Shown here one piece after another: positions 7,895-30,364 of a stretch of 42,087 nucleotides of DNA. The notes below the pieces were generated by a model. It worked only from the letters and a program-made list of their open reading frames with translations. It did not search any database and was not told the DNA's origin. Each line of letters opens with the position of its first letter. Position 1 is the stretch's first letter. Source of the stretch: a virus. Lineage: Duplodnaviria; Heunggongvirae; Uroviricota; Caudoviricetes. A program made the position numbers and the translations under genes. Location: IMG/VR virus record IMGVR_UViG_2565956712_000007; one strand, given 5' to 3'.

Positions 7895-7915
7895 GCCGCA
7901 TAAGCGGTTTTTTTT
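7895..7915 (+). terminator. Intrinsic terminator in the ant leader
   Basis: Short GC stem GCCGC-ATAA-GCGG followed by T8. Confidence 0.5.
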
Positions 7916-9566: not shown

Positions 9567-9567
9567 T

Positions 9568-9579
9568 GTGACATGTCAC
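9568..9579. repeat. 12-bp perfect palindrome GTGACATGTCAC (copy 1)
   Basis: Exact 12-mer, adjacent to the terminator hairpin. Confidence 0.9.
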
Positions 9580-9617
9580 GATAGTTCAGTTTTGCACATC
9601 CCTGTGCCGCCGTTCTG

Positions 9618-9851
9618 TCAGAAGAACCCTGCCTTGTCGTTGATGTACTCCGCGTGCGTCTGGATATCACGCAGGCATTTGCTCACACCAACGATGTAGC
9701 AGAACATGGTTGTCAGCTCCGCCGCCGCGCCCGATACATCATGCCCGTCTTCCTGTAACTGGTTCAGCAGATTCATCAGCAGTGAGTGCTCCGTCAGGCC
9801 GAGAACACCAGACGGAGAATGAATCAGGCTGCGGTAGCCGGGCTTCAGCGG
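9618..9851 (-). repeat. Inverted repeat arm B (234 bp)
   Basis: Encodes C-terminal 77 aa of Ant2; reverse complement matches 8522..8755. Confidence 0.85.
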
Positions 9852-10556
9852 ATAACCATAACATTTTGTCTGTGTTTTAATTGCCTCACGAAGCGCATCT
9901 AACATCTTGACTGCCACTTCATCATTCTCTGATGCAGATCCAGCAGGGAGATACTCCCCTTCAAGCGGAACCCGAGCAACAAGAGACAACGCTTCGGCGA
10001 ATTGATCTTCATCAATTTCTTTGTACGAACAGCCAAAATGAGATTTCAGTGACGACCACATGGTGATCATCGCCTTAGCCTGTTTTTCTTTTGGCAGAGA
10101 CTGACCGCGACTCATGACGAGTTGTTTAATGGCTTCCTGCTGTTCAGTGGTGATTTTACCCGGCAACGCCTTTTTAGCTTTGCGTGGGTTAACTACATGG
10201 CCTTTAGTCCAGTAATCGTAGAGCACATCGTCACACTCTTCCTGATACTGGATTACCTTGTCGCGGATTTCAGGGCGTACTTTGTTTGGACTGATGCTGT
10301 TCAACCAAGCTGCCAATTTTCGTAAAGCCATACAAATCATGGCTTGCACCCCACCGGCAGAAGGTATGGTGATTTCCACCATACCCTTCGAGAAGCGTTG
10401 AGAAATCTTCTTATGTTGAGATTTCCAGTCTAGCCCCATTCCCTCAACGATAGGTTTCATTGGGGTATACGGTTCACCGTTGTGATTGACAACATAAAGC
10501 TCTGCGCCGTGGAATGGCACGTTGATAGTAGATACCGCTGTTGCTATACTCGTCAT
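9618..10556 (-). CDS. Antirepressor, P22 Ant-type N-terminal domain (Ant2)
   Basis: N-terminus VPFHGAELYVVNHNGEPYTPMKPIVEGMGLDW; downstream of arc-like gene as in P22 immI. Confidence 0.8.
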   Translation of the reverse strand: MTSIATAVSTINVPFHGAELYVVNHNGEPYTPMKPIVEGMGLDWKSQHKKISQRFSKGMVEITIPSAGGVQAMICMALRKLAAWLNSISPNKVRPEIRDKVIQYQEECDDVLYDYWTKGHVVNPRKAKKALPGKITTEQQEAIKQLVMSRGQSLPKEKQAKAMITMWSSLKSHFGCSYKEIDEDQFAEALSLVARVPLEGEYLPAGSASENDEVAVKMLDALREAIKTQTKCYGYPLKPGYRSLIHSPSGVLGLTEHSLLMNLLNQLQEDGHDVSGAAAELTTMFCYIVGVSKCLRDIQTHAEYINDKAGFF

Positions 10557-10628
10557 GTCGTTAATTCCTATACGTAGTTTTACGATACTGAAGCCCTGAC
10601 GGTCTGGCCACCGTTGGGCTTCGCTGTT

Positions 10629-10796
10629 TTATGCCACGCTATTCTTCTCACCAGTGAGTCCATACACTTTCCTCAGCTGATAGATAATCTCTGTATTGAA
10701 CTTTCGGCATTCTTTTTCGCCATTTCTTTCAATAGCTAACTTCACATCGTCCGGAAAACGAACTCGTCGTTGACACATCTCTTTTGCTTTTTGCAT
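10629..10796 (-). CDS. Arc-like ribbon-helix-helix repressor (56 aa)
   Basis: RVRFPDDVKLAIERNGEK..FNTEIIYQL resembles P22 Arc; AAGGAG RBS 7 nt before the ATG at 10796. Confidence 0.7.
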   Translation of the reverse strand: MQKAKEMCQRRVRFPDDVKLAIERNGEKECRKFNTEIIYQLRKVYGLTGEKNSVA

Positions 10797-10810
10797 TTCA
10801 TATCTCCTTA

Positions 10811-10825
10811 GCCCCACGGTGGGGC
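10811..10825. promoter_or_regulatory. 15-bp palindrome GCCCCAC-G-GTGGGGC, candidate Arc/Mnt operator
   Basis: Perfect 7-bp arms; between divergent arc-like and mnt-like genes, beside a TTGACA hexamer on the minus strand. Confidence 0.5.
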
Positions 10826-10916
10826 AAAACAATTGTCACACCGTGCGTCATTGATGTCAAGCACACGGTGAGGCATACTTCAATCATTGCAAGTAACTCA
10901 ATATTTGGTGAAGAAC

Positions 10917-11348
10917 ATGAGCAGAGAAGATCCACAACTAAGGATCAGACTTCCCGTTGAAGTAAAAGAAAAAATAGAAATTTCTGCAAAAGCCAATAAG
11001 CGATCAATGAACGCTGAAATAGTACAACGTCTTGACACCAGCTTTCTGAAAGATATTCATGAAGATGACGTAATTTCTGCTTATGAAGCAAAAATTATTG
11101 CAAACAATGCACGGCATGAAATATCAAATATTATTTTCAAAAGAACCTTTAATGAAATTAATAAGAAAATAACACTTGGACATACAAGTTTTTATATAAA
11201 CCTTAATGACCTTGAACTGGAATCACTTGCAGATAATGATTACCAGATCATCTTTGAAAAAACATTTAATAAGCTCAATGAACTAGGTTACATCATCTGT
11301 GAAAACTCATGGGATGCAGATGGTTTTGGAATTGAAATACCTGAATAG
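10917..11348 (+). CDS. Mnt-like RHH repressor fused to an AT-rich C-terminal extension
   Basis: N-terminus DPQLRIRLPVEVKEKIEISAKANKRSMNAEIVQRL matches P22 Mnt; about 60 aa longer than Mnt. Confidence 0.65.
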   Translation: MSREDPQLRIRLPVEVKEKIEISAKANKRSMNAEIVQRLDTSFLKDIHEDDVISAYEAKIIANNARHEISNIIFKRTFNEINKKITLGHTSFYINLNDLELESLADNDYQIIFEKTFNKLNELGYIICENSWDADGFGIEIPE

Positions 11349-11390
11349 GAAGAACAAAAGGCGTGTACATATTACACGTCTTTAATACAA

Positions 11391-12002
11391 TTGAAAAACG
11401 CCACATTACTGATGTATGTTACAACAAGGAGCGATATTTTGAAAACCATATCTATATTAAAGGTTGCATTAGGCGTCGCTATTATTTTGACTCTCTCAAT
11501 ATTGTTTTATTTTTACCACAAAAAAAATGCTATTGCTCTTGATGGTCACGCGGCAAACTCATTTTTCTCAGAGTACATAGTGCCGCTATCAGGAAGCGGT
11601 ATAACAAATAAATATACTGACTATGACATCAAATATGGAATTGATGATGGGGAGACTATTGTATTACATGTAATCATTAAAAACCTAATGACAGTAAATA
11701 AAAATACAGACTTCAACGATAAAAATACAATACATCACAACAACAGCAAAACATTAATTTCTTATAGTAGCAACATCTATACGGATAAATACCTAAAATA
11801 CATCTCAGAAGATACAATAAAAGCAACCAGCGAAAAGTTAAAAAACATATATTGTGCATCCGGCAGTTTTCACAAATTATCGCCGCAGGAGCGTTTATTC
11901 TACGAAGCAAGAAAACAACGTAAGTCAATAATATTACATTATTATGCTGATTCAGGGGAGTCACTCATATTTAATATTGGGGTTTCCCCTGAATCATGCT
12001 AA
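11391..12002 (+). CDS. AT-rich membrane-anchored hypothetical protein; candidate superinfection-exclusion moron
   Basis: N-terminal TM helix (ILKVALGVAIILTLSILFYFY); between ejection-protein gene and mnt-like gene; start uncertain. Confidence 0.45.
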   Translation: MKNATLLMYVTTRSDILKTISILKVALGVAIILTLSILFYFYHKKNAIALDGHAANSFFSEYIVPLSGSGITNKYTDYDIKYGIDDGETIVLHVIIKNLMTVNKNTDFNDKNTIHHNNSKTLISYSSNIYTDKYLKYISEDTIKATSEKLKNIYCASGSFHKLSPQERLFYEARKQRKSIILHYYADSGESLIFNIGVSPESC

Positions 12003-12013
12003 AGGCGTTTAAC

Positions 12014-15000
12014 TCACCGCATCACCGGATCCACCTGGTTTATTAGTGGCGCAATCCAGAACAGGTTATTGCCTGGTATCAGAGTTCGGACATTATGCGC
12101 AATACGATCACCGGCATCACCATTCAACACTCCTGCGGTCACATCAATGATGCTATCCGCAAGACCAAATGACGGTCCGAATAGAGATCCTACGAATCCA
12201 CGACTGGCATACCTAGACTGTGTGCCAGTGCCAAATAAAGCCCCCAGCCCAACAGCACCACCAGTAGCCTTTTCAGCCATGTTGTTATATTCTATCAATG
12301 GCCCAAGAATACCGGATCTATCTATACCCTCAAGCACCAGCTTCTCTGGTGACCAGTCAACATTTTTCCCTTTCGATGCTTCTTTTAGCGCATAGACCAG
12401 TGAGCCAAGAGCAATCTGAAATGCAGTGCCATAATAAAATTGCGCAGTTCCTTCCTGTAACCCACCAAGTAGCGCACGGTTGTATGAAGCCGTTGTGAAT
12501 GATTTAAACTGAAATATCGTTCGCCCCATTGGAGTACTCGCCCATAAAGGTGTGTCACCAATACCGGGGGTGATGATAGTGTTATTAACGTCTTTCAGAA
12601 CCGCTGACTGGAATACTCCGGCAACGTACTGATCGTCCCATTTATCAAAGTTACCAATGTGCCATCCATCAATTACCTCACCATGTTTCTCGAACTCACT
12701 GCGAATACGCGCAGCCATATTGTCGTTGATACCGAGTTTTGCCATGCGACGTGCAGAAAACGCACCGGACAAAATACCGTCTGACGTGAGCATTCCGTTC
12801 ATGGATTTGTTTATGTCATTAAATCGATCCATGAGTGTCAGCTTGCCGAAGGCATCAGTAATTCGCTCCATTCCTGCTTCGACTGCTGTTGTCCTGGAAG
12901 AACTGTCAACAAGATCACCAATTGCACGAGAACGTGAATGTAGTACAGCTTCCAATCCAATCCCCATCTTCAACATATCTTCTTTGCTGGCCTTAAATGC
13001 CGGTGATTGGGATATCTGAGAAGCATAGCCTTTCATGGTGTTACGGAAACCATTAACCATAACCCCTCTGGCCAGATCTGGAATAGCTGATACTGTCATT
13101 CCACCGAGTTTGGTCGTGAAGTTCACATCCCGCAGAAAAGCGCCAGCACGAACAAAAAACGAAGACGGATCATCAGGCATCCCATATGTACCAACAAGAC
13201 GATCGCGTAATGCTGTTATGTCTCTGAGATCATTTGCTCTTGATTTTGAAAGTCTGGACTGTTCTTTCCGTAATTCCTTTTCGTACTTTCGCATTAATGA
13301 ATCGAGTTTACCCTGAGGAACAACTTCACCATTGCTCTCATAACGTGCTTTCAGATTTGCCACACTTTCGTCATATTTCGCCTTTATTTTTTCAGGCACT
13401 TCCCGTAACAGACTGTCATATTCGTCCTCAATTAATTGCAGACGCTCAGTCATAGTTCGTTTGCCAAATGTTCTCGTCAACTCAATTTCTGCTGCCGCTT
13501 CACGGATATGACGTTGCAGCACGTAATTCACATCACTTTCAAGATAATCCCTGATAAGACTATCAGGAACATTTAATGTTCTTTCTTTCGTACTACCTGC
13601 GGCTTTTACAGAAAATACGCTGACAAAATCCTGTGGAACCTTAGCACCAGTAATTTTATTAATTACGATATCCGCTGCAATTTCAGCATCCTCAGGATCC
13701 AGTGTTTTATTTCCTCTCGACCACCAGTCAACCAAAATACGTCGAAATTTATCGCGTTCACTGATTATTTTTCCAACTTTATATATGCGTGGGAAATAGC
13801 TTGCCTGGCCTAATGCTTTCAGTTCTTCATCTGGCGGCAATAAACCAAGCTTTTGCATTTCAACTTTCACCCGATTTAATACAGTTCGCATCGCCTGCGC
13901 CGTTTCCTGAACAACAGGATTAGCATGCACATCACCGCTTCGCATAGCATTCCCAACCTGCTGACGAAATGAATCAAAACTCATGTCACCACCATCAGCT
14001 TTATACTTTGCGTATGCCTGTTTATTTCCGACAACAACAGCAGCTTCTTCACGCTGCCATCCACGTGTACGGGTTTCTACAGCTACCGGTGTTTCAATCC
14101 CCCTTTCATTTCCTTTAAGGGTGAAATTATTTTCGGCTAACTCCAGCGTTGTTTTTCGCACCGTCTTGGACGGAGACTCCATTAACCTTGTCAAAGGAGT
14201 AAGATAGCTCCCTGCTTTCCATGCAGCCTTTCCAACCCACCCACCGGAAACAGGGGTTAAATCATCCAGAGTCGCTGTATCAATTTTCATAGCACCAACA
14301 CTACCACCATCGGAAAGCGAAGCGGCAGCCCTGTCAGTCACTGATGTAATGCTCATATTATCAAGAGCATCAGCAACCTCACGTGTGGCTGCAGCCCGGA
14401 CGGATGGCGAAAGCGCAACACCAGCACTGGCAAACACGCCGCTCATCATCGCACCCGCTGCAACGTGAGCGGCACTTTCACCCCATGAGCGTGTTATTTG
14501 CTGATTATTCAGTACAACCTCGCTTAATGCTGTACCGGCAGCACCAATCGCAATCTGTGAGCCAATACGCGCCAGTGCCCCTCCTTGAGCACCGGGAATA
14601 AACATTGACGCAACAGTAACCGGATCCATTCCCGCAGCAATACTGGCAAGGGTTCCAACTACGCCAGCATCAGACAATAAACGTCTGTCTTCATTTTCAT
14701 CATCTATCTGCTGCTTAATCCACGCCGTTTCCTCTGGCGATCGGGAATCTGCAAATTTCGCCCCCCAGTATTCATAACCGTGCAACTCATTTTTATCAGC
14801 ATATGGGTTATAACCCTCGACCGGTTCAAACTGTCTGGCTGGGCGGAAAAAACCAGACAGAATATTGTTCTGTCGCATTGCAGCCCCCCATACGGAAGGC
14901 TCAGGTGGCAATGGCTCAGGATTAGCCCCTTCCGGAAGGGCAACATCAAACCCAGTTTGTTCCGGCAAAACATTACCTGACGGGATCAGTCCGTTATTAA

Positions 15001-15028
15001 GATCTTCAGCTTGTGCATAAACTGGCAT
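12014..15028 (-). CDS. Large internal virion / ejection protein (1004 aa)
   Basis: Long late-operon ORF after the other internal core proteins; Gly/Ala-rich segments. Confidence 0.7.
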   Translation of the reverse strand: MPVYAQAEDLNNGLIPSGNVLPEQTGFDVALPEGANPEPLPPEPSVWGAAMRQNNILSGFFRPARQFEPVEGYNPYADKNELHGYEYWGAKFADSRSPEETAWIKQQIDDENEDRRLLSDAGVVGTLASIAAGMDPVTVASMFIPGAQGGALARIGSQIAIGAAGTALSEVVLNNQQITRSWGESAAHVAAGAMMSGVFASAGVALSPSVRAAATREVADALDNMSITSVTDRAAASLSDGGSVGAMKIDTATLDDLTPVSGGWVGKAAWKAGSYLTPLTRLMESPSKTVRKTTLELAENNFTLKGNERGIETPVAVETRTRGWQREEAAVVVGNKQAYAKYKADGGDMSFDSFRQQVGNAMRSGDVHANPVVQETAQAMRTVLNRVKVEMQKLGLLPPDEELKALGQASYFPRIYKVGKIISERDKFRRILVDWWSRGNKTLDPEDAEIAADIVINKITGAKVPQDFVSVFSVKAAGSTKERTLNVPDSLIRDYLESDVNYVLQRHIREAAAEIELTRTFGKRTMTERLQLIEDEYDSLLREVPEKIKAKYDESVANLKARYESNGEVVPQGKLDSLMRKYEKELRKEQSRLSKSRANDLRDITALRDRLVGTYGMPDDPSSFFVRAGAFLRDVNFTTKLGGMTVSAIPDLARGVMVNGFRNTMKGYASQISQSPAFKASKEDMLKMGIGLEAVLHSRSRAIGDLVDSSSRTTAVEAGMERITDAFGKLTLMDRFNDINKSMNGMLTSDGILSGAFSARRMAKLGINDNMAARIRSEFEKHGEVIDGWHIGNFDKWDDQYVAGVFQSAVLKDVNNTIITPGIGDTPLWASTPMGRTIFQFKSFTTASYNRALLGGLQEGTAQFYYGTAFQIALGSLVYALKEASKGKNVDWSPEKLVLEGIDRSGILGPLIEYNNMAEKATGGAVGLGALFGTGTQSRYASRGFVGSLFGPSFGLADSIIDVTAGVLNGDAGDRIAHNVRTLIPGNNLFWIAPLINQVDPVMR

Positions 15029-17745
15029 TATTTAGATCCCCACGAAAAGTAATCTTTAAATTTGTCCATACGTTCGTTATGCAGGCGCTGATACTGCTCA
15101 TCCAGAGCGCGATGCTTGTCTTTGAAGTTTCGTATAGCCTGTCCACGCATAATTTCTTCCTGCTCGTACTGCTCCCGTTCCTGCTGCATTTTCTTATAAG
15201 GTTCCCAATCTTCTAGTGATGGTTCCCAACGCATAGGACGCCCATGTTTGTTATAAAACGGCTGGACCCGATCGATGCCATTTTCATCCTTAGTTCTTAC
15301 CATAATGGCGTAATCACCATTACGGGGTGTTAACACGTCAGGGGTTATGAATAATTCTCCATTAATACGACTCTCAGGGGTTTTTGTCTCAACTACAGGA
15401 GCATTACCTGACGTGATCCCAAGCAACGTCGGACTGGTTGTTATAATCTCTTTGCGCTCACCGTACATCAGCCGTTCTTTTTCAGCTTTCCACTGCGCCG
15501 CCTGCCAGCCTGACGGCCCATATTGATAAAGCGCCTCCGGTGCATATTTCATAAACTGCGCTTCTCCGTTAACCTCGCTGATACTCCAAGTGCGGGCTAT
15601 CTGCTGGTTGGTCATTTGCTTCGCTACGTCAGCGTTACCACCAGCAACGCGGTAGTTAATGTCATACATCGTCTGATAGTCATTACGGAATCTAGCTGCT
15701 TCCGGCGTCTGGTCATCCGCAGACGGATCCCAACGGAACCACTGCGCCATATTGCTGACAGCAGAATTCATCGCCTTGCTGCGATCATTTTTGTACTCTT
15801 TTGAACTCTGCGTTGATGCCAATTGAGCTTTAAGTGCATCGGTCTGGTTGTACGTAAGGTTCTGCGCCTGCTCGATAGCCGCATCAGCAGACATGCCAGA
15901 ATCAGTTAGTTGCTTAACAGTCAGATAAAAACCCTGCATATCCTTCGGCATATTTCCAATAGATGCATTGTCTGTTTCATATAACCGACTAAACAGTTCC
16001 GCCGCATTTTTAACCACTTCCTGATTGCTGGATCGGGATACTGCTGAAAGCTGCGTGATGACCTGCGAAGGCATTATGCCAGTCTGAGCCACAAGCCGAA
16101 CAACCCCATCATGAGTGGAGACATCATTAATACGAAAGTTCTGCGCCATTTCTGTGTAATCAGCAGCTTTCTGCATTGACTTGTTGCTTGGGTCTAATTT
16201 TTCACCTATTGTCAGCGCCTCATTGAATCTGCGTGAATCCCGTTGCGCCTGAATTGCTTCATTTGATCTCTGAAGCAATGCAGACAATTTTCCGTAAGCA
16301 TCGAGTTTTAACGCATAGTGAGGATCGTTAACCTCAGGCTTCACTTTCTGCATTTCTTCTTGCTGCTGAGAAGGAGGCAAATACTGAATTGCCTGGAATA
16401 TTCTCGCGTTATCAATCGCTATATCCAGTTGATTGATTATTTTATCTGCGTTTTTTCCATACCCCCTGATGATGGTCTCCTGAGCCGGTATATAATCTGG
16501 AACCTCACCGTTATATAGCTGGGCCATGGTGTTATTAATAGCTGGCTCAAGCTGTTCTAATATTAACTTCCTTTGCTTTTCTATCTGACTATTAGCAAGG
16601 TTATCTATTTGATAAATAGTCAGTGGATCCATTCCAGTTTTATTTTTTCTATATCGGGAAAGCCACCCTTGTGTTTCTGATGGAAGATTTCGGATAAATT
16701 CTTCTTCTGATATTTCACCTTTACGTGGATCACCGACTTTGGCGATCAGTTTATCCACGTTACCCATCCCCCAGTTATATGCTGCTCCGGTCAATATTTC
16801 TGAGCCGTACTTACCATACAGTTGATTTACATAGTCACTGGCAAGCATTTCATGCTGTTGTTCGTCCGTAGGGTTGTATTCAACGCCACGTTTGGCCGCC
16901 AGTTCTTTCCCTGTGCCCGGCATTAACTGGTATTTCCCCTGGGCCCTCTCTCCAGAAGATGTTTTCGGTCCTTCAAGAATACTACCATCAGGATTAAAAT
17001 GACGATCACCTGATTCAACAAGGCGTATGGCACGCATGTCCATGCCTCCAGAATCATTTTTCTGAAACTGACCATTTAACCATCCTTCCGGATTAGCAGC
17101 GGCATAATTCTTCGCCCGCATTTCTGTGGCACTGCGATCATCACTTTCTATTTCTTCCAGAATGCGTTCTTGTGACCATCCCCTGGCTGCTCCATATCTG
17201 GCAATGGCTACCATTCTGGAATTTCTGGCTAAAGTGGCAGTTTGCGGGTCATTCCAGGCATCCGCTTCATTTTGTATCCATAATTTTCTCGTTGCCTGAT
17301 ATTGCTCATCTTCATAGGCATTTGTCTGCCCTATCTCATGTCTGAGAACTCCAGTACTGAACTGAATTTTCTGTGTTCTGGCTTGTTGCAAAAACATATT
17401 TCTTGCTGCTTCATCAGTCAATGAAGCAGCTATTTCTTCCACATCCTGATCAAATCCAGATATGTACTCTTGCCCCTTACCAATCGCATTTTTGCCTTGT
17501 TGTGCATAAAAACCGGTTTGAGGGTTATAAAGACGTTCATTGCTGCGCTGATTAAGCTGAAGGATGGCATCCTGAGACAATGCAACATTCGCTTTCTGCC
17601 TGGCTTCACCATATGCCACCGCATACTGATCTGCGACATTCGCCAGCACCTGACCTGCTTGAGGAACATCGAAGGTTTGAAAACCACCGGTTTGCACACC
17701 ACGACTTTGCACCTGGCGTCCGGATGTAGTAGGAACAACAGGCAT
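15028..17745 (-). CDS. Internal virion protein with lytic transglycosylase domain (905 aa)
   Basis: SLT-like block RLVESGDRHFNPDG...AQGKYQLMPGTG...YNWGMGNV. Confidence 0.8.
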   Translation of the reverse strand: MPVVPTTSGRQVQSRGVQTGGFQTFDVPQAGQVLANVADQYAVAYGEARQKANVALSQDAILQLNQRSNERLYNPQTGFYAQQGKNAIGKGQEYISGFDQDVEEIAASLTDEAARNMFLQQARTQKIQFSTGVLRHEIGQTNAYEDEQYQATRKLWIQNEADAWNDPQTATLARNSRMVAIARYGAARGWSQERILEEIESDDRSATEMRAKNYAAANPEGWLNGQFQKNDSGGMDMRAIRLVESGDRHFNPDGSILEGPKTSSGERAQGKYQLMPGTGKELAAKRGVEYNPTDEQQHEMLASDYVNQLYGKYGSEILTGAAYNWGMGNVDKLIAKVGDPRKGEISEEEFIRNLPSETQGWLSRYRKNKTGMDPLTIYQIDNLANSQIEKQRKLILEQLEPAINNTMAQLYNGEVPDYIPAQETIIRGYGKNADKIINQLDIAIDNARIFQAIQYLPPSQQQEEMQKVKPEVNDPHYALKLDAYGKLSALLQRSNEAIQAQRDSRRFNEALTIGEKLDPSNKSMQKAADYTEMAQNFRINDVSTHDGVVRLVAQTGIMPSQVITQLSAVSRSSNQEVVKNAAELFSRLYETDNASIGNMPKDMQGFYLTVKQLTDSGMSADAAIEQAQNLTYNQTDALKAQLASTQSSKEYKNDRSKAMNSAVSNMAQWFRWDPSADDQTPEAARFRNDYQTMYDINYRVAGGNADVAKQMTNQQIARTWSISEVNGEAQFMKYAPEALYQYGPSGWQAAQWKAEKERLMYGERKEIITTSPTLLGITSGNAPVVETKTPESRINGELFITPDVLTPRNGDYAIMVRTKDENGIDRVQPFYNKHGRPMRWEPSLEDWEPYKKMQQEREQYEQEEIMRGQAIRNFKDKHRALDEQYQRLHNERMDKFKDYFSWGSK

Positions 17746-22186: not shown

Positions 22187-22230
22187 TCCTGCAATAAAGG
22201 GGCCGAAGCCCCTTGTCGGATTCGCGAGGC

Positions 22231-22575: not shown

Positions 22576-22576
22576 C

Positions 22577-23014: not shown

Positions 23015-23065
23015 CTTCTTTCTCCATTAGTGGGTCTGTTACGACCCACAGGTTAATAACAGGCG

Positions 23066-24058
23066 TTACACCACGCGGGCTTCTGTTTCCAGAAGCGCAT
23101 CAGTTTCACGGATTGGTACACCACGGAATGACGTCCACCACTCGCCTTCAGTCTCTTTTACGCTAATCGCCAGAGATGTTTTCTCCAGAGACTGCAGATC
23201 AAGAGCCTGGCCTACAGTGCGGTTCATGTAGAACACCGGGCGACCCATGCCACGGTTTGGAATGCGATGCAGTGCTTTAACCATCAACTTCGCAATATTT
23301 GCGGCAGAGGAAGGTTCTGAAAGATTGCTGACATCGATGTTTGCAATGCGAACAACATAACGCCAGTCACGCAGAGCAAGTCCGTTGTCCCATTTGTAAT
23401 GGGTACGGTAGCCTTCGTACTTGCCGCCATTAGCATCTTCCAGTGTCACCTGGCCTTTATCTTCCATCTGAATGCCAGCCTTCTGCCCTTTCGGGAAGAT
23501 GCCATGCACGGTGTTTTCGCCCCACACCACTAACCAGATTGAGGTGTTATCTGTGCCCGTGCCACCAGCATCAATGATGTTCTGAGCATTACCTGCAGAC
23601 AGGCTGGAATAGCGGGAGGACAGTCCCATAAACTGCTGAGGGTTAACGCTGGAATCACCATAAAACAGCGTCTGCGCCATCTGCTGATTCATCGCTTCAA
23701 TAAATGCGCGGTCTTCAGACAGGCGGAATTCGGCGGTATTGCCGTTCAGATCAGCCAGTGACTTATCGACTTCAGCATAGGTTTCCAGCATGCCAACGGA
23801 ATCGGTTACCTGCACTGTGGTTGATTTGCTTGGCTGTACGCCATAGTTCAGCAAACGCCAGGTAGCTGAAGGTAAACCAGAACGAATGGTGGTTCGGTGT
23901 CCGGTAGGAAGGTTCCCTTCGACAAAAGGCATATCCTGAAGGATCGGGTTAGTTTGACCGAGAAGCTCGATAATCTTATCGACTTTCCCGTTTGGATCGA
24001 CGCGCTTACCCCAGTCAGCCAGCGTTAGCGCAGTTAAGCCTTTAACAGCCATTGTCAT
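23066..24058 (-). CDS. Major capsid protein (330 aa)
   Basis: Position after the scaffold-like gene; size; followed by an intercistronic hairpin. Confidence 0.75.
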   Translation of the reverse strand: MTMAVKGLTALTLADWGKRVDPNGKVDKIIELLGQTNPILQDMPFVEGNLPTGHRTTIRSGLPSATWRLLNYGVQPSKSTTVQVTDSVGMLETYAEVDKSLADLNGNTAEFRLSEDRAFIEAMNQQMAQTLFYGDSSVNPQQFMGLSSRYSSLSAGNAQNIIDAGGTGTDNTSIWLVVWGENTVHGIFPKGQKAGIQMEDKGQVTLEDANGGKYEGYRTHYKWDNGLALRDWRYVVRIANIDVSNLSEPSSAANIAKLMVKALHRIPNRGMGRPVFYMNRTVGQALDLQSLEKTSLAISVKETEGEWWTSFRGVPIRETDALLETEARVV

Positions 24059-24066
24059 TTCCTCTC

Positions 24067-24768
24067 TTATTTGCCATAGAGCACTTCGGCCGCACTACGC
24101 TGGCCTTCATTACCACCGGTGACCATGCCATCTTCAGACATCGCCTTTCCGATTTTCACGAACGTTTTGACCAGGTCAGGGTGATTACCCAGTCCGGTGG
24201 TGTTCAGATATTCTTTGAGTTCAGGTGTCCCGAACTGGTCAAGCGCACGCTGTGCGGCGCTAAGGTTAGAAATCAACTTGTCGCCACCGATTTCTTTGTC
24301 AGCTTTTACATCCGCAGCCCACTGCTCGGTTGTTTTCTGCCAGGCTTCTGCCTGGCGCTGCTGAACACCTGCCAGAATCTTCGGATAAGCATCAACCAGC
24401 TTTTGCGCTTGCTCGTTGGTCAGGTTTAGTTCTCGCGCCACCGGCTCGAATTCCTTCAACGCTTCTGTATCCAGCTCTACGCCTTCGGCAGCCTGAAACT
24501 CGTACTTCTCAGGCGCACCCTCTGGTTTATCGCCGCCCTTTTTTTCATCCTGCTTATCGTTTTCAGGCTTTTTGTCATCAGCAGGTTTATCGCCATCAGA
24601 AACAGGTTGTGGCTTATCACCTTCCTGTTGTGATGGATCACCAACTGGAGCAGGGTTATCATCTGCATGCGCTGACGGTTCTGACGCAGCCGGAGCTGCC
24701 CCACCATCGACTTGTTGCTCATTGCAAAGACGGCGATACAGCAAACGCTCAAATAAACTCATGATCAC
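24067..24768 (-). CDS. Scaffolding protein (acidic, low complexity)
   Basis: Acidic, Pro/Asp/Lys-rich N-terminus with helical C-terminus; between portal and capsid. Confidence 0.65.
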   Translation of the reverse strand: MIMSLFERLLYRRLCNEQQVDGGAAPAASEPSAHADDNPAPVGDPSQQEGDKPQPVSDGDKPADDKKPENDKQDEKKGGDKPEGAPEKYEFQAAEGVELDTEALKEFEPVARELNLTNEQAQKLVDAYPKILAGVQQRQAEAWQKTTEQWAADVKADKEIGGDKLISNLSAAQRALDQFGTPELKEYLNTTGLGNHPDLVKTFVKIGKAMSEDGMVTGGNEGQRSAAEVLYGK

Positions 24769-25061
24769 TCCTGTTCACTGGCCTCTTTGGCCATCTTCAA
24801 ATACTGTTCAGGGCAATGCGCCATAACGCGCTGAAACAGTTCCAGCGCCAGATTGCGTTGCCCCTCATTAAATGCCATTGCCATAGCATCCATCGGAGAG
24901 ATAGCGGAAAACACCCGGCCTTTCTCCAGCACCGACCAGACAACGCGACGCCCCTGTTCACTGCTCATGACAAAGCGAATGTCATCAATTTCACGCTGTG
25001 CCATGTCACGTTGCTTACGGGCGTTTTCTTCTTTCAGTTGATCGTCTTCGTAATCTGTCAT
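24765..25061 (-). CDS. Hypothetical protein (98 aa) between portal and scaffold
   Basis: Overlapping start/stop coupling with neighbours. Confidence 0.5.
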   Translation of the reverse strand: MTDYEDDQLKEENARKQRDMAQREIDDIRFVMSSEQGRRVVWSVLEKGRVFSAISPMDAMAMAFNEGQRNLALELFQRVMAHCPEQYLKMAKEASEQE

Positions 25062-26737
25062 TGTGATTGCCCACCCTGACCACTAACTGCATTCGCCATA
25101 GCTGACAACACACTCGGATCCGAAGTTTTAGCTTCGCTTAGCGTCTTGGCCCCCTGTGCCGCCGCCATCCCCATCGCCATCATTTGTTGCTGCTGTTGTT
25201 GCTGTGCCCGTTGCTGGCGAGCCTGCTCAACCTGTTCCTGCGGAACAATGACGGTTGGAGACACTCCGGACATATCAGCGAATGCATCGATCGCCTGATC
25301 AACGTTGAGTTTGTCGAGAGCTTCTGGTTTCGCTTGCGCAAGTTGACCAATGAAGTTAACCGTGGACGCCAGACTGGACAGGCCGATAGACTTCTGCGCC
25401 TGAGCCATGACGGAAATGTATTCGACCTTCAGGGGCATGCCTTCCATCGCGTCAGGCGGTGGCGGCAGCATGTTTTTGCGCACCATCATCGAGAAAGCGC
25501 GGTCAATGAGAGGATTAAGACATTCGTCGTTCAGACGCTCCAGAACCGGCCCCAACATCAGAAGTTTTTCTTCTTTCATTTCGATCACCGCTTCAACAGG
25601 CATCGAGCGGGTATTGATGTTCTGCAACATCATGAACAGATCGACAAAGTAGGCGCTGTTAATGATTTGACGAGTGTCCTGAATGTCTGCCACCAAATCT
25701 GCTGTACTGGGGTTAACCAGATAAGCAGGCCTGAAGCCATCCTGACCAGTAATCTGATCGATATACGTGATGTCGCCAGGAAGAAGGGAGGCGCGCTGAT
25801 TCTTGAGGGAATTCGGAGCAACCATCGGCGGATTGGTGGCTTTATCAATCAACTGCGACTTGCGCTTCTGGAGAAGCTGCAATGCCTTAACAGGTCCAAG
25901 CGCCAGCATACCCGGGCATGATGATCCATAAACATCTTCGCCGTTAACTTCCCAGCGCGGAGCCATAATTGGAAACTCATCGAATCCGGACTCACGCAAC
26001 AACTTGTCGTTATCTCCACCAACCTCGTAATAAACCGATTTGAATGGCTTGTTCTTGCTATCCAGCTTCGATGTATCGCGGTCAATGTTCGGGTAAACCG
26101 AATGCATCACTTCGATCCACTTCTCGTAGGTGCCGCTTTCCCACATGCTTTTTACGGATTCGCTGACGTTATTTAGCCCGAACTCCTGAACAAGCTGACG
26201 AACAGTCATAGAGAACTTGCGAAAACAGGTGTCAACACTGCCACGAGGTGAGTTAGCCAGGTAGTAACTGCCTATCGGGAATGGCATTGTGCGAATGATG
26301 TCCTCGTCATCCTCCAGCACTGCCATTGCACCAGTGCTGTATGTGCCGAGGCTTCCGTATAACTGCGGAAGAGACTGGTAGAGATTCGACTTATTGAACA
26401 TATCGTTCATGCGGTTCTGAACTGCCTCAAGCCACAACTTAACAGGGCCATAATCCATCATTTCAGGATCTGGCGTAGCCAGGCGAAACCACGGACGCGC
26501 GGGGCTTGTGATGCCTGACATCATGCCGCTGGCGAGAGTGCGCGCCGCCATAGTCCCGGTCGAATCAATAATGCGTGTATTGCGCCGATCGTTACGGTTG
26601 GCCTCAGAAGTCAGAAAGCGGGAACCACGCGGGTTGATGTAATCACTCAACTCGCGCCAGTGCGGCTCGAACGACTGACGCTCGCTTTCAAGTTGTGCGA
26701 ACTGTTTGTTCAATCGCTCTTTAGTTGTTTCCGCCAT
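25058..26737 (-). CDS. Portal (head-tail connector), T7-like type
   Basis: 559 aa; Gln/Ala/Met-rich C-terminal tail (QQQQQQQMMAMGMAAAQG) like podovirus connectors. Confidence 0.8.
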   Translation of the reverse strand: MAETTKERLNKQFAQLESERQSFEPHWRELSDYINPRGSRFLTSEANRNDRRNTRIIDSTGTMAARTLASGMMSGITSPARPWFRLATPDPEMMDYGPVKLWLEAVQNRMNDMFNKSNLYQSLPQLYGSLGTYSTGAMAVLEDDEDIIRTMPFPIGSYYLANSPRGSVDTCFRKFSMTVRQLVQEFGLNNVSESVKSMWESGTYEKWIEVMHSVYPNIDRDTSKLDSKNKPFKSVYYEVGGDNDKLLRESGFDEFPIMAPRWEVNGEDVYGSSCPGMLALGPVKALQLLQKRKSQLIDKATNPPMVAPNSLKNQRASLLPGDITYIDQITGQDGFRPAYLVNPSTADLVADIQDTRQIINSAYFVDLFMMLQNINTRSMPVEAVIEMKEEKLLMLGPVLERLNDECLNPLIDRAFSMMVRKNMLPPPPDAMEGMPLKVEYISVMAQAQKSIGLSSLASTVNFIGQLAQAKPEALDKLNVDQAIDAFADMSGVSPTVIVPQEQVEQARQQRAQQQQQQQMMAMGMAAAQGAKTLSEAKTSDPSVLSAMANAVSGQGGQSQ

Positions 26738-26751
26738 TTCAATGACTCCGG

Positions 26752-26958
26752 TTACTGACCAAGCAGCGTTTTACCGCTGGTATTAGCGGTTGATGTGTCG
26801 CCCTGAGAACCGGTAAGCAGCGTAGAACTACGACCAGCAGCAGCGCGACGGCGACGTGTTTCTTCGTCGCGGGCATCAACAACGGCAGCATCCTGCTCCT
26901 GTGGTGCTGCCTGAACTTCTGGTGTTGCAGGCACTGATGGTGAGCTACCCATGCACAT
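26752..26958 (-). CDS. Small hypothetical protein upstream of portal (68 aa)
   Basis: GGAG RBS; low-complexity sequence; could be spurious. Confidence 0.35.
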   Translation of the reverse strand: MCMGSSPSVPATPEVQAAPQEQDAAVVDARDEETRRRRAAAGRSSTLLTGSQGDTSTANTSGKTLLGQ

Positions 26959-27047
26959 ATCAATGACTCCGTACGCAATTAAATTATTACCAATTTAACC
27001 ACATATGATTTATTTATCGTAGATAGTTGACATTTAACGCGCGAATT

Positions 27048-27064
27048 ATTACCTTTCAGGTAAC
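27048..27064. promoter_or_regulatory. Operator-like site ATTACC-TTTCA-GGTAAC
   Basis: Same half-sites and same spacer as the 6573 site. Confidence 0.55.
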
Positions 27065-27385
27065 TAAAGAGTTCATTCCGGTTACTAACCTGACTGGCTT
27101 GTCGTTAAATTGAACAGGTGGAGTGAGCTTTTATTTTGAGCAGTACGGCGTATGGCACATGCGACGATAGCGGTCTGGATACGTTTAAGGGGCACCCTCC
27201 CTTGCTCGGGCAAACGAACCAGGTAGCCGGAATGTGCAAGTCGAGCGGTTTTATTCCGCGCACGGGGATTCACCATCCCGGCGATTCGGTGTGACGCCTC
27301 GGAAGAGACGAGGGTACAACGATGAGAGCATTTATGGAGCCGCGACAAAGTGTGGTGCCTTAACAGGCTAAGTGCTCTCAGCGTT

Positions 27386-27462
27386 GTGGCATTAGCTCAG
27401 TTGGACAGAGCAACCGCCTTCTAAGCGGTTGGTCGCAGGTTCGAATCCTGCATGCCACGCCA
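27386..27462 (+). tRNA. tRNA-Arg (anticodon UCU)
   Basis: Hand-folded cloverleaf: 7-bp acceptor GTGGCAT/ATGCCAC, D-stem GCTC/GAGC, anticodon stem ACCGC/GCGGT with loop CTTCTAA, T-arm GCAGG-TTCGAAT-CCTGC, discriminator G, encoded CCA. Confidence 0.85.
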
Positions 27463-27505
27463 GAATCACGCCTAAGGACCGTGATGCCAGAAGTTCCAGG
27501 GGCTT

Positions 27506-27547
27506 GGCGGTGATGGTTTCCCTTGAAGGACTATCACCGCCCTTTTT
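27506..27547 (+). terminator. Hairpin + T5 downstream of the tRNA
   Basis: 9-bp stem GGCGGTGAT / ATCACCGCC with large loop, then CTTTTT. Confidence 0.5.
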
Positions 27548-27625
27548 ACAGCAGGACGCCATTGCGATGACTTCATGCTGTAAACCAGTACAGCCACGGA
27601 AGGCATAACTCATTGCTTCCAGTTC

Positions 27626-27650
27626 GCCCGGTTCGCCGGGCATTTTTTTA
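27626..27650 (+). terminator. Intrinsic terminator GCCCGG-TTCG-CCGGGC + T7
   Basis: Perfect stem with tetraloop followed by ATTTTTTTA, 10 nt before the moron RBS. Confidence 0.7.
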
Positions 27651-27660
27651 AGGTGAGATT

Positions 27661-28083
27661 ATGAAGACAATTGATATGTTGGCTAAGTATCTAAATGAAT
27701 GGCCATTAAAATATTCTCGTATCGTTCAGGCTGAAGACTGCGTTTTTTATGGCGTTTTTGCTGGTAATGAAATGCATTACGAAGTAATTCAGAGTGAGGG
27801 ACTGACCGGGTTAACTCTTAGCGAAGACCATGGTACTAGCGTTACGTTCCATGACTGGATAACAGCACAACGTTCTGAAATGGAAAAAGGCGATGTGTTT
27901 GATATTTCTCGCGCTGTATACGCCAAAGAAAAAAGTGATGATGATTACATGCGCGAAAACTTATACAACATGAAGTTACAATGCCTGGCTGAAGTGCTTA
28001 GTAAAAGATCTTTACTTGATGTGGTTGGTGCTGAGCAGGACGCCAAGGCAATCAACGCCGCATTCGATAAAATAACCTTCTAA
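27661..28083 (+). CDS. Moron protein (140 aa), function unknown
   Basis: RBS AAGGTGAG; antisense to late operon; own terminator. Confidence 0.6.
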   Translation: MKTIDMLAKYLNEWPLKYSRIVQAEDCVFYGVFAGNEMHYEVIQSEGLTGLTLSEDHGTSVTFHDWITAQRSEMEKGDVFDISRAVYAKEKSDDDYMRENLYNMKLQCLAEVLSKRSLLDVVGAEQDAKAINAAFDKITF

Positions 28084-28087
28084 CGCA

Positions 28088-28099
28088 GTGACATGTCAC
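28088..28099. repeat. 12-bp perfect palindrome GTGACATGTCAC (copy 2)
   Basis: Exact 12-mer, 4 nt after the moron stop, 4 nt before the terminator hairpin. Confidence 0.9.
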
Positions 28100-28103
28100 A
28101 AAC

Positions 28104-28130
28104 AGCCAGCCGATGAGCTGGCTTTGTTTT
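28104..28130 (+). terminator. Intrinsic terminator AGCCAGC-CGATGA-GCTGGCT + TTGTTTT
   Basis: 7-bp perfect stem and T-rich tail. Confidence 0.75.
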
Positions 28131-28173
28131 ATCCTCATCAGAGGATATCAACGACATTATCCCCACCAGCGGA

Positions 28174-29649
28174 TTAAGCATAGGGATCGTAATCTGTGAT
28201 GGCCTTGCCTTGCTGGTTCTGCTGACCGGGAATTCGCAGACGCTTCGACACAGGGAACGCAAACGTCAGCAGTAGCGCATCGCCTTTACCAGGAGAACGC
28301 CCAAGCCGCTCCTTGATATCTTCCTTCTGTTCGATAATGATTTTACCGTCCACGCGAACTTTGTACTCTGCCGCCGACAGGTCGTCCGCTGTTTCCTGGT
28401 CATCCAGCATGCCGCCCAGCCTCAGCCATGTCTTGCATGAATTGAACATCTCCCCACGCTTGTTGAGCATCTGCGGGTCAGTAGACGCGCCACCGAACGG
28501 AACAAGTTGCCATGTACGACCCCATCCGTCACCGATTGACTTCAAACCGGTTCCGTAACCGAAGTCGATGAACACCGCGTCAGCCTGATACTGGTCTTCA
28601 AAGTCAGCGATACGCTTTGCCATAATCAGATCGTCAGTGGTCTTGTTGCCAGTCCACAGCACCTTACTGTGCAGCCCCTGCCGCAGGTATATCACAGCGT
28701 CATCAACGCCTGAGTATGCCGGGTCAACGCCGATTATCACCGGAGCATGTGCAACCTGCGCAGCGGTGACCACCCGTTTCATTGCCTCGTCAGTAAGTCC
28801 GGTAGGGATAAACTGCAATTCAGATGCATCCGGGAATATGCCGCGCACACGGATTTTAACGAAGTCGCTGTCTTCCCCGTAGTCATCAACCCATTTCTGC
28901 AACTGCTGTTTGTTGGTGCCTTCCACCGTCCGGCTGTCAATCTGCGCAGTTTTCCAGCGGTGTTTATATTTGCGGAAACATTCGCGGAAACGTCCGGTAT
29001 TACGCGTCGGGTTTCCGAACGCCACCCAGATAATCTCAGTGTCTTCGTCCGTTAGCGCACCCTCGGCAACTTCCCACACCAGATCCGCAATGTTCGACGC
29101 TTCATCGAATACCACGATGATGCGTTTGCGCTCGTTGTGTAGTCCGGCGAATGCCTCAGTGTTGTGCTCAGACCAGGGTATTGCGTCAGCTCGCCACCGC
29201 TTGTCGTGTCCAGGATCATTGCTGTACATCGCGGTAGCGGTACAGGTAAACCAGTCTTTCGTGATAGCAAGGTTCGACCACTTGATAATTTCCGGCCAGG
29301 TCTTCGTTCGTAGCTGGTTGTCGGTGTTGGCGGTCACCACAACCTTACAATCCTCGCAAGTGGACATGCCCCAGTTGATCAGCATTGAGATGAATGCGGA
29401 TTTACCAATACCGTGACCCGAAGCGCGTGCCAGCATAAGCGGCTGATAGCGCGTCTCTGGATTCTGCAGGTGATCACGTATCTCTCGGAACGCATCAGCC
29501 TGCCACTGACGTGGACCGGTGGCATGTGCCAGTTCAGTCCCATCTTCCCCCCACGGGAACGCATAGAGGGCATAGCCAAGCGGATCGTGAGTGAACCCTG
29601 CAATATCCTCGATTAACTGCTCTTCAGGAGATAACGCTGTATCTGTCAC
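28174..29649 (-). CDS. Terminase large subunit
   Basis: Walker A-like SGHGIGKS; 491 aa; overlaps small-subunit gene by 4 nt. Confidence 0.85.
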   Translation of the reverse strand: MTDTALSPEEQLIEDIAGFTHDPLGYALYAFPWGEDGTELAHATGPRQWQADAFREIRDHLQNPETRYQPLMLARASGHGIGKSAFISMLINWGMSTCEDCKVVVTANTDNQLRTKTWPEIIKWSNLAITKDWFTCTATAMYSNDPGHDKRWRADAIPWSEHNTEAFAGLHNERKRIIVVFDEASNIADLVWEVAEGALTDEDTEIIWVAFGNPTRNTGRFRECFRKYKHRWKTAQIDSRTVEGTNKQQLQKWVDDYGEDSDFVKIRVRGIFPDASELQFIPTGLTDEAMKRVVTAAQVAHAPVIIGVDPAYSGVDDAVIYLRQGLHSKVLWTGNKTTDDLIMAKRIADFEDQYQADAVFIDFGYGTGLKSIGDGWGRTWQLVPFGGASTDPQMLNKRGEMFNSCKTWLRLGGMLDDQETADDLSAAEYKVRVDGKIIIEQKEDIKERLGRSPGKGDALLLTFAFPVSKRLRIPGQQNQQGKAITDYDPYA

Positions 29650-30242
29650 TGATTACCATCCTGACGTTCTTTGAGTCGCTTCCTGGCTGCTGCTATGCGA
29701 TCAGCAATTGTCACATTCACATTAACATCCAGACGTTCTTTGAATGCGTTGACATCAACATGCTTACCAATCAGCTCAAGGTTCTTCACCTTGTCAGGCC
29801 ATTTAATTTTTTTGAGGATTGTCTCTATTGAATCCTCGTTCATGTTCATGATGGTCGATGACAGATCAAAGCCACTAAGCGTAGTGCGCCAGATTTTCGG
29901 CCACTCACGGATTGGTTTAAGGCTCCCATCGTCGTTGAGGATGTCGATCACGTCCATCTGGTCGATCTCCACCAGGCGCATGAGAACGTAATCAGCACTG
30001 ACACGCATTCGTTTGTTGCGCTCCTCCATCAACTCGGCAATCCGTTTCTGAATGCGTTCATCGCGCATCATGACACTGGCTTTAACTGCCGCTGTATTTG
30101 GGGAGAATCCTGCGTTAATCGCAGCCTGAGTCTGGTTTTCAGGCGTTTTGATGTATGACTGGCAATAAGCCTCCTGCATTGCTGTGAGCGGCTTAAATTG
30201 CGTTGATTTGCGTTTATAGGTTTTAGGTTCAGCAGGCATCAT
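29646..30242 (-). CDS. Terminase small subunit (start probably the ATG-ATG at 30242/30239, not the track TTG at 30320)
   Basis: Terminase_2-like region LTAMQEAYCQSYI...AAINAGFS; upstream 78 nt hold an operator-like site and a terminator hairpin. Confidence 0.7.
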   Translation of the reverse strand: MMPAEPKTYKRKSTQFKPLTAMQEAYCQSYIKTPENQTQAAINAGFSPNTAAVKASVMMRDERIQKRIAELMEERNKRMRVSADYVLMRLVEIDQMDVIDILNDDGSLKPIREWPKIWRTTLSGFDLSSTIMNMNEDSIETILKKIKWPDKVKNLELIGKHVDVNAFKERLDVNVNVTIADRIAAARKRLKERQDGNQ

Positions 30243-30258
30243 AACCACCGTGGTAATT

Positions 30259-30275
30259 GTTACCGTTGTGGTAAT
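30259..30275. promoter_or_regulatory. Operator-like site GTTACC-GTTGT-GGTAAT in the terminase leader
   Basis: Inverted half-sites, 5-bp spacer. Confidence 0.5.
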
Positions 30276-30280
30276 AGTAC

Positions 30281-30311
30281 CATGCAAAATAAAGCCGCCA
30301 TAGTTGGCGGC
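30281..30311 (-). terminator. Hairpin terminator upstream of the late operon (tR'-like)
   Basis: GCCGCC-N6-GGCGGC followed on the minus strand by UUUAUUUUG. Confidence 0.55.
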
Positions 30312-30352
30312 AGTATTCAAAATCCATCAAATTCATCATGCATAATCTACTC

Positions 30353-30364
30353 GTGACATGTCAC
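30353..30364. repeat. 12-bp perfect palindrome GTGACATGTCAC (copy 3)
   Basis: Exact 12-mer overlapping the stop of gene 30361..30702, about 40 nt before the hairpin. Confidence 0.9.

Follow-up and report, generated by a model that had tools for sequence, protein, structure and literature searches.

We analysed a 42,087-nt stretch of viral DNA (IMG/VR record IMGVR_UViG_2565956712_000007, called here the window), an Epsilon15-like (Uetakevirus) prophage of Escherichia coli whose closest relatives are TL-2011b, phiV10, phiv142-3 and PAS61 and whose late genes lie on the - strand. The window harbours three copies of a 12-bp palindrome, GTGACATGTCAC, whose generalized form, GTGAC-NN-GTCAC, is probably the binding site of a 112-residue protein encoded by a gene that ends within one of the copies. 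This protein is predicted to combine a ribbon-helix-helix (RHH) fold with a zinc finger and is called hereafter the RHH-Zn protein. The explanation that we favour, with a probability of about 0.4 in its full form, is that the palindrome serves the RHH-Zn protein as an operator where transcription units end and that binding at these points would drive read-through of the terminator, i.e. antitermination.

The palindrome occurs exactly three times as an exact match, at 9568-9579, 28088-28099 and 30353-30364 (copies 1 to 3), as an earlier note on this sequence had reported. The mean of 100 dinucleotide-preserving shuffles was 0.01 copies, and none of the shuffles reached three. The copies have only these 12 bp in common, which rules out a longer repeat or a mobile element. 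Read along the adjacent gene, the order is the same at all three sites, namely a stop codon, the palindrome, a G+C-rich hairpin and a T-tract; the intrinsic terminator claimed to lie beside each copy is thus indeed present. At copy 1, the stop of the antirepressor gene (ant) at 9618 is separated by 38 nt from the palindrome, which directly abuts a hairpin (9567-9550, - strand) followed by TGTTTTTA. At copy 2, the stop of a 140-residue open reading frame (ORF) at 28083 precedes the palindrome by 4 nt, and a hairpin (28102-28125, + strand) comes 2-3 nt after it, followed by GTTTTATC. At copy 3, the TGA stop of the 112-residue ORF (30363-30361, - strand) is contained in the palindrome; a hairpin (30311-30294, - strand) follows after 41 nt, then TTTATTTT and the gene of the small terminase subunit. 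It is these neighbouring hairpins with their T-tracts that have the hallmarks of intrinsic terminators, not the palindrome itself. The window contains approximately 11 strong terminator-like sites, three of which are accompanied by the palindrome. The only single-mismatch version of the palindrome, GTGCCATGTCAC, at 24998-25009 lies within a small coding ORF of the head region, and the number of such versions in a mismatch scan is within chance; this one is kept as such in phiV10 and TL-2011b and is probably coincidental.

Related phages carry the palindrome at the same three places, denoted slots A, B and C and represented in the window by copies 3, 2 and 1, respectively. Slot A coincides with the stop codon of the p55/gp49-like gene, which precedes terS; slot B falls between terL and an inverted accessory gene, whose stop faces the end of terL; and slot C immediately precedes the terminator of a unit transcribed in the late direction. 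That unit corresponds to the structural operon in phiV10, Tyrion and SPN1S, whereas the window and TL-2011b have the ant unit there. Counting the 12-mer in relatives, as the earlier note had proposed, showed that all three slots are occupied in phiV10, phiv142-3, Enterobacter phage Tyrion and Salmonella phage SPN1S, and that TL-2011b has the palindrome in slots A and C and lacks it in slot B. What surrounds the palindrome varies from phage to phage, in the flanks, in the neighbouring genes and even in the sequence of the terminator. The 12-mer itself is exact but for single central or near-central changes, GTGACATGTTAC in slot A of phiV10 and GTGACACGTCAC, with one mismatch, in slot B of phiv142-3.

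The gene that ends within copy 3 (30361-30699, - strand) belongs to the family of phiV10 p55, epsilon15 gp49 and N15 gp46 (phrog_536). Its product has no sequence match in Pfam, NCBIfam or the PDB, and no sequence homology to MatP, to Q or to any solved structure was found. The phrog_536 family is annotated as 'transcriptional regulator', and nearly all of its 726 database relatives at E <= 0.001 are unnamed or called 'hypothetical protein'. The family alignment features a basic N-terminal segment, ERKAAQRARQ, in an arginine-rich helix, a strand-helix motif, RKLEIVLDxQExEML, followed by a second helix, and four invariant cysteines (C79, C82, C91 and C99) that form a C-terminal Cys4 motif. An AlphaFold2 model with a mean predicted local distance difference test score of 77 has helices at residues 5-19, 30-42 and 52-75. 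Together, the alignment and the model suggest a putative dimeric DNA-binding protein with an RHH-like fold and a Cys4 zinc finger. The regulator gene is the last of the early lytic operon and overlaps the upstream ORF, which makes its expression in the lysogen unlikely; it is distinct from the CI-like repressor gene at 36344-36928. A PHROGs search of the early regions of the window yielded no Q- or N-like antiterminators.

We determined how tightly the gene and the site are associated using one genome per bacterial species, scanned with a peptide pattern derived from the protein alignment and with the palindrome ignored. This gave 64 usable loci (48-81% protein identity, Enterobacterales plus two outliers, 1.24 Mb in total). 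They contain 92 copies of GTGAC-NN-GTCAC against 1.2 expected, with at least one copy in 62 of the 64 loci, and in 41 loci a copy lies within -15 to +60 nt of the stop of the regulator gene, mostly with the TGA embedded in it. The same arms separated by 0, 1, 3, 4, 5 or 6 bp were found 3, 2, 2, 1, 1 and 4 times, respectively, vs 92 times at 2 bp. The centre is AT in 76 of the 92 copies. Conservation is 100% in the arms and 84% and 94% at the two central bases, and around the site it is 28-59% in most downstream columns and 38-94% in the upstream coding columns. The last codon of the regulator gene specifies V, M, P, L, A or S, and its third base is always G; as the amino acid varies while the G is fixed, selection operates on the DNA and not on the residue. 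Because the TGA of the gene is built into one copy, gene and site travel together.

This association extends to distant members of the family, whose hosts are mainly Enterobacterales but also Vibrio and Aeromonas. In N15, the stop of gp46 (about 35% identity) is overlapped by GTGACTGGTCAC, and the genome contains three copies of GTGAC(TG/CA)GTCAC, at 28550, 33237 and 39269, in both orientations and all unannotated. Besides the one at the gp46 stop, one N15 copy is downstream of gene 33 and one is inside repA, ~620 nt from its start. In Vibrio phage K303 (31% identity), the gene is followed after 226 nt by GTGACACGTCAC, and P22 has no copy of the palindrome. In Providencia, Proteus and Xenorhabdus prophages a copy is kept within the 3' part of a CII-like gene, where it reads R-D-M-S-H/Q without synonymous change next to diverged flanking codons; the other copies are at gene junctions. 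Prophages of Pantoea, Erwinia and Serratia likewise have the gene together with its site at the end of an early operon, just before xis and int.

The relation to terminators is more limited. In an unbiased set, 19 of 76 exact copies (25%) have a strict terminator within 45 nt, vs 2.3% of random positions. Among 160 distinct contexts, the order palindrome, hairpin, T-tract was found 41 times and the reverse order seven times, and the gap between palindrome and hairpin is 0-7 nt at sites of the slot-B and slot-C types and 19-41 nt at slot A. The association with terminators is real, orientation-specific and tight, but it marks a subset of the copies. The pairing proposed in the earlier note stands in the window and applies to about a quarter of the copies in the family, in which the main association is with the phrog_536 gene: many copies lead straight into the GGAG of the next gene, into a LexA-box promoter or into a hairpin without T-tract before xis/int. 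Similarly, copy 3 is adjacent to the terminator that precedes the terminase genes, as described, but this arrangement is plastic, since a 70-residue gene intervenes in a near-identical prophage. Beside the site, neither a promoter of the lambda type nor a pause element is conserved; the names 'ant2', 'moron' and 'tR'' used for this region are labels only.

In the explanation that we favour, the RHH-Zn protein would be made from the delayed-early operon, occupy the palindromes and act on passing RNA polymerase so that it reads through the next terminator. In this scheme the palindrome would be comparable to the loading sites of the Q/qut and RfaH/ops systems, except that it is symmetrical and recurs on the path of late transcription: slot A would be met before the terminase genes, slot B after the large terminase gene and slot C before the terminator between the structural genes and those for tail spike and lysis. 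An operator in duplex DNA fits the symmetric arms, the free centre and the strict spacing, as well as the absence of compensatory changes and the maintenance of the site in coding regions; it also fits that one copy incorporates the stop codon of the gene for a predicted dimeric binder. A dimeric protein-binding site, one of the possibilities raised in the earlier note, is therefore the best reading of the palindrome, with the RHH-Zn protein as the candidate binder. That binding affects transcription is what we infer from the position of the sites, which lie upstream of hairpins where transcription units end; this favours a control of read-through. Antitermination would be preferred to a block because a strong terminator and no evident promoter precede the terminase genes and because no other antiterminator candidate was found.

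Several points weigh against this explanation, the case for which comes from sequence comparisons. Three quarters of the copies in the family have no canonical terminator alongside, and some are located within coding regions (the CII-like gene and N15 repA) or right before a Shine-Dalgarno sequence. The spacing at slot A is plastic: in E. coli JNEC-KY171, a 70-residue gene (213-425 of locus L198) is inserted between the palindrome and the terminator. The insertion comes exactly after the slot-A palindrome, and the 3' end of the ORF matches part of the 41-nt spacer of the window, which seems to be a remnant of the deleted ORF. The slot-B palindrome precedes its terminator when read along the transcript of the accessory gene, but not in the direction of late transcription. 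No -10-like or pause element was found at a fixed offset from the site in 30 distinct contexts, and loading of the Q type needs one. RHH regulators normally have their operators in promoters and not at the 3' ends of genes. Finally, N15 has a separate Q-like late activator, gp40, so the phrog_536 family is not a universal late switch.

We also considered that the palindrome might be part of a late promoter or activator site. The gap between the regulator and terminase genes holds a strong terminator and no recognizable promoter. The sole promoter-like match, at copy 3, is weak and uses GTGACA of the palindrome as its -35 element; it lies partly in the apparent remnant of the deleted ORF, and no -10-like hexamer is found at a fixed offset in other lineages. 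We rejected this candidate, as well as that of a pac site, to which the copies flanking terS and terL had pointed. The latter was judged unlikely because the site accompanies the regulator gene where no terminase gene is adjacent, i.e. before xis/int, before a LexA-controlled gene and in the early region of N15. The 12-mer is not known to match the boxes of CRP, LexA, Fur or other standard host regulators, nor methylase or restriction targets.

Comparison with known systems led us to place the element among probable phage regulator-operator pairs, with control of the Q-like or stoperator-like kind. The gene order in Uetakevirus phages resembles that of the Q-qut-tR' systems of lambda and P22, with a regulator gene, a presumed site, a strong terminator and the late genes: in the window, the gene (30361-30699), the site (30353-30364), the terminator (30294-30311) and terS follow each other, and the order is the same in the relatives. 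In P22, gene 23, P-late, qut and t-late are located within about 140 bp. Like Q, the candidate is predicted to be a small zinc-binding protein. However, it has no homology to Q (no Pfam or PHROG match), and its site has no conserved promoter or -10-like pause element; the palindrome is instead found in several copies per genome, some of them 5' of other terminators or inside genes. N15 has both the Q-like gp40 and a phrog_536 family member. The stoperators of mycobacteriophages L5 and Bxb1 are reportedly asymmetric 13-mers, of which the genome has 20-30 oriented copies, with the immunity repressor as their binder. As short repressor-type sites scattered in short intergenic regions of a temperate phage that act on elongating polymerase, they can be likened to the palindrome, but the latter is symmetric, present in two to four copies and linked to an early gene that is not an immunity gene. 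With the RHH repressors Arc, Mnt, CopG and MetJ the candidate shares the predicted fold, the strand-helix-helix motif and a short palindrome suited to the antiparallel beta-sheet of a dimer. Their operators overlap promoters, whereas the candidate has an additional Cys4 domain and its sites are at gene 3' ends and terminators: they lie at stop codons, between stop and terminator or inside genes, with no conserved promoter element adjacent.

Other likenesses concern the site itself. A site bound by SlmA, GTGAGTACTCAC, is reportedly a 12-bp palindrome as well, with the same outer GTGA...TCAC. Its four central bases differ, SlmA is a TetR-family helix-turn-helix protein, and no further link was found. 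Closer is matS (13-bp GTGACRNYGTCAC; consensus GTGAC[AG]N[TC]GTCAC, PMC3603311; laboratory matS GTGACAGTGTCAC, PMC7394560), the site of MatP, which has half-sites identical to those of the palindrome, GTGAC/GTCAC (GTGACA/TGTCAC as 6-mers), and a degenerate centre. Both systems are characterized by few dispersed copies, an RHH-containing protein (predicted as such in the phage) and enterobacterial hosts (PMC3603311, PMC7394560). However, matS, whose copies cluster in the Ter macrodomain of the chromosome, has a 3-bp spacer, whereas that of the palindrome is strictly 2 bp, and the palindrome is located on a phage, at gene ends; sites with the 3-bp spacer were not found in the window or in six related phages. 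In addition, MatP consists of a four-helix bundle, an RHH domain and a coiled coil, and the candidate has neither the bundle nor the coiled coil nor detectable similarity to MatP. We regard the resemblance as a lead and not as a sign of membership. A literature search for the 12-mer, the N15 variant and the generalized motif did not find them in a phage context, and the palindrome-protein pair thus appears to be undescribed so far.

The earlier note had placed the copies at module borders, and alignments bear this out. We aligned probes of about 410 bp around each copy to 5426 complete E. coli genomes, 637 of which contain the sequence around copy 3. Alignments to prophages repeatedly start or stop at the edge of the palindrome: those of the copy 1 probe end at query position 211 or span only 173-211, those of the copy 2 probe start at 192-199 and those of the copy 3 probe start at 214. 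The alignment to other prophages also breaks at position 9580 of the window. Copy 1 alignments that start at 225 represent a separate joint, 14 nt past the palindrome, with records that share only the 3' part of the antirepressor gene. At least six different genes precede an identical palindrome-terminator unit. These mosaic joints are real and are probably a consequence of the conservation of the site: when diverged phages exchange DNA by homology, breaks fall at the borders of an element under selection, so the joints need not be its function.

The main rival of the antitermination model is that the same protein-DNA pair serves as a roadblock or boundary, akin to a stoperator or an insulator, which possibly bridges copies through the zinc domain and would confine transcription at module borders; we consider this unlikely. 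Such a block may shut off early transcription, insulate accessory genes or stop leakage into terminase, xis/int or replication genes. It would account for the copies at module borders and convergent junctions, for those lying in N15 repA or, ahead of replication genes, in the 3' part of the CII-like gene, and for those right before the Shine-Dalgarno sequence of the next gene where there is no hairpin. Two to four copies per genome is also the number that a looping or bridging protein would need. However, a block at slot A would leave the terminase and structural genes silent, as no other promoter is evident for them, and a block that assists a terminator is expected downstream of the T-tract, which is the rare order (7 vs 41). 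The unlikely expression in the lysogen of a gene that ends the early lytic operon also argues against it. It is less likely, and indeed quite improbable, that the element acts as RNA, with GUGACAUGUCAC at the transcript 3' end forming a protein-binding hairpin or a self-complementary 'seed', similar to small RNAs derived from 3' untranslated regions, that could affect the adjacent terminator or the next Shine-Dalgarno sequence. The site is on the transcribed 5' side of terminators with a spacing of 0-7 nt, it often abuts the GGAG of the next gene, and the stop codon inside it means that a terminating ribosome would cover it. Furthermore, the protein has an arginine-rich N-terminal helix, and the N15 copies in both orientations would place complementary versions in transcripts. 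Nevertheless, we rejected a stable RNA hairpin, as the isolated 12-mer has a folding energy of only -1.2 kcal/mol, which is no improvement on shuffled sequences (z about 0), and neither competes with nor perturbs the terminators in predicted folds. The arms are invariant over 31-100% protein identity without the compensatory changes that covariation in an RNA element entails, and C5 and G8, which would close the loop, are likewise invariant and complementary, as expected of a symmetric site in duplex DNA. The protein is predicted to fold like RHH proteins that bind double-stranded DNA, and Rfam gave no matches at the palindrome sites, neither to nut (boxA/boxB) nor to any other known RNA element.

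Two further alternatives dispense with the phage protein. In one of them, the site is directed at the host as a matS shortened by one base, for MatP or a similar nucleoid protein, and either positions the phage DNA at Ter and the divisome or serves as a decoy. The range of MatP overlaps the host range of the phrog_536 family, i.e. mainly Enterobacterales plus Vibrio and Aeromonas. Deleting the central base of laboratory matS (PMC7394560) yields exactly the palindrome, and true matS sites, which are avoided in prophages (PMC3603311), are absent from the window and the six related phages. We nonetheless find a host-directed site very improbable. Its spacer is strictly 2 bp (92 copies vs two with 3 bp), and a shift by 1 bp turns the half-sites by about 36 degrees relative to each other. 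The phage protein has no sequence similarity to MatP, a host factor leaves the tight linkage to a phage gene unexplained, and a 5-bp arm shared with one of the many known E. coli sites is not very unlikely in itself. The other alternative, slightly less probable again, is the recombination linker of the earlier note, in which the 12-mer with its terminator has no dedicated binder and marks where homologous or site-specific recombination swaps modules. Linker or boundary sequences conserved at mosaic joints have reportedly been described in lambdoid phages. The palindrome resembles them as a short conserved intergenic sequence flanked by alternative modules, with homology that breaks exactly at its edges, and it differs from them by a defined 12-bp symmetric core that is under selection, kept inside genes and tied to one protein family. 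The variety of genes that precede one palindrome-terminator unit, the gene inserted directly after copy 3 in a close relative and the RecE/RecT encoded by these phages fit a linker as well. However, 12 bp are too short on their own to drive homologous exchange, and exact arms, a free centre and a strict 2-bp spacing indicate selection for sequence-specific recognition. Within coding regions the site is also kept free of synonymous substitutions, and its link to a single gene family spans bacterial orders. As junctions are expected at the edges of any conserved functional element, exchange within such an element is the simpler explanation.

With respect to the surroundings of the three copies, the terminator in the gap between the regulator and small terminase genes (GCCGCCAACTATGGCGGC followed by TTTATTTT; 30286-30311, - strand) is kept in phiV10, TL-2011b, SPN1S and Tyrion. 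The gene of the small terminase subunit, the first late gene (29646-30239, - strand), was identified by Pfam Terminase_2 and the annotation of TL-2011b; we assumed an ATG start near 30239, and the listed ORF with a TTG start extends to 30320. Between the slot-A terminator and the start of terS, at 30250-30281, there are two imperfect direct repeats, GTGGTAAT(T/A)GT(T)ACC, which could be a terminase (pac) or regulatory site. At slot B, the 140-residue accessory ORF (27661-28083, + strand; phrog_4846) reaches up to copy 2 with its 3' end; relatives carry other genes in its place, and homology breaks at the palindrome. Its terminator (ACAGCCAGCCGATGAGCTGGCTTT followed by a T-tract; 28102-28133, + strand) is weakly bidirectional, with TGTTTGTG following on the - strand, and the homologue in phiV10 is annotated as a terminator. 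At slot C, copy 1 is located directly 5' of the terminator (AGGCCGCTTTCGCGGCCT followed by TGTTTTTA; 9542-9567, - strand) that ends the P22-type ant unit, downstream of the antirepressor gene (9618-10556, - strand; Pfam P22_AR_N); in relatives this slot comes after p21, gp19 or other genes. Copy 1 and its terminator form a unit of roughly 39 bp, which occurs alone in otherwise unrelated prophage contexts (the alignments that span only 173-211 of the probe).

A bidirectional terminator at 6929-6946, AGGCCGCTCTTGCGGCCT, is near-identical to the copy 1 hairpin and has no palindrome; in one IMG/VR relative (L061), a hairpin of this type does bear it. Rfam detected a sar RNA at 10558-10625 (+ strand), antisense to the 5' end of the antirepressor gene, as in immI of P22. 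It also detected isrK (7838-7914) and C4 antisense RNA (7934-8020), both on the + strand, just upstream of a 279-residue ORF (7916-8755). The region 7838-8755 looks like a c4-icd-ant immunity module of the P1/P7 type next to the P22-type ant/sar module, so this prophage would have two antirepressor systems.

Additional observations were made in the collected loci. In the Pantoea, Erwinia and Serratia prophages, eight loci (L140, L144, L145, L148, L159, L161, L176 and L184) have a conserved small hairpin, CCTGTTGCAGCAGG (CCCGATGCAGCGGG in L144), ~10-40 nt past the palindrome, and L180 and L181 have a different one, GCCCGTATGCGGCGGGC, at that position. These hairpins lack a T-tract, lead into a G-rich Shine-Dalgarno region (GTGGAG at many loci) and precede a xis-like gene in L184 and L180, the two loci in which this was looked at; they may be an unrecognized regulatory RNA structure. 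In seven loci (L126, L127, L133, L005, L011, L049 and L067), a near-consensus LexA box (TACTGT-N8-ACAGTA) in a promoter-like setting comes right after the palindrome, which suggests that an SOS-controlled gene was inserted between the regulator gene and terS. Unrelated viral contigs from IMG/VR (L074, L073/L082, L091, L115 and L116), some of them of high G+C content, contain dense GTGAC/GTCAC arrays that include the 12-mer; these are iteron-like and probably represent a different system. In phage EC.W1-9 (PP445227.1; loci L195 and L196), the regulator gene (3444-3790) is frameshifted before the Cys4 region, a lesion also found in IMG/VR locus L096, and the palindrome is kept at slot A and not present at slots B and C. 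This could reflect decay of the system or a sequencing error; the case is a single anecdote, which agrees in direction with a link between gene and site.

These analyses pair a widespread family of 'hypothetical proteins' with a precise candidate DNA target at exact positions, and they bear on the activation of late, excision or accessory genes in Epsilon15-like phages and numerous further temperate phages of enterobacteria. Conservation of the site would also explain why these phages exchange modules at these points. A bolder proposal, which we regard as decidedly unlikely, is that an RHH-Zn protein tethered to a symmetric 12-bp site immediately behind hairpin-coding DNA constitutes a new antitermination (or boundary) system. 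It would engage RNA polymerase terminator by terminator, in either direction and without promoter-linked loading, and matS half-sites at a spacer shorter by 1 bp would keep MatP and the phage protein orthogonal or competing. The identity of the half-sites with those of matS raises the question of cross-talk with, or deliberate avoidance of, host MatP. Should the protein govern read-through from a position immediately before terminators, the short list of phage antitermination and insulation systems would gain a mechanism, and synthetic biology a compact 12-bp part.

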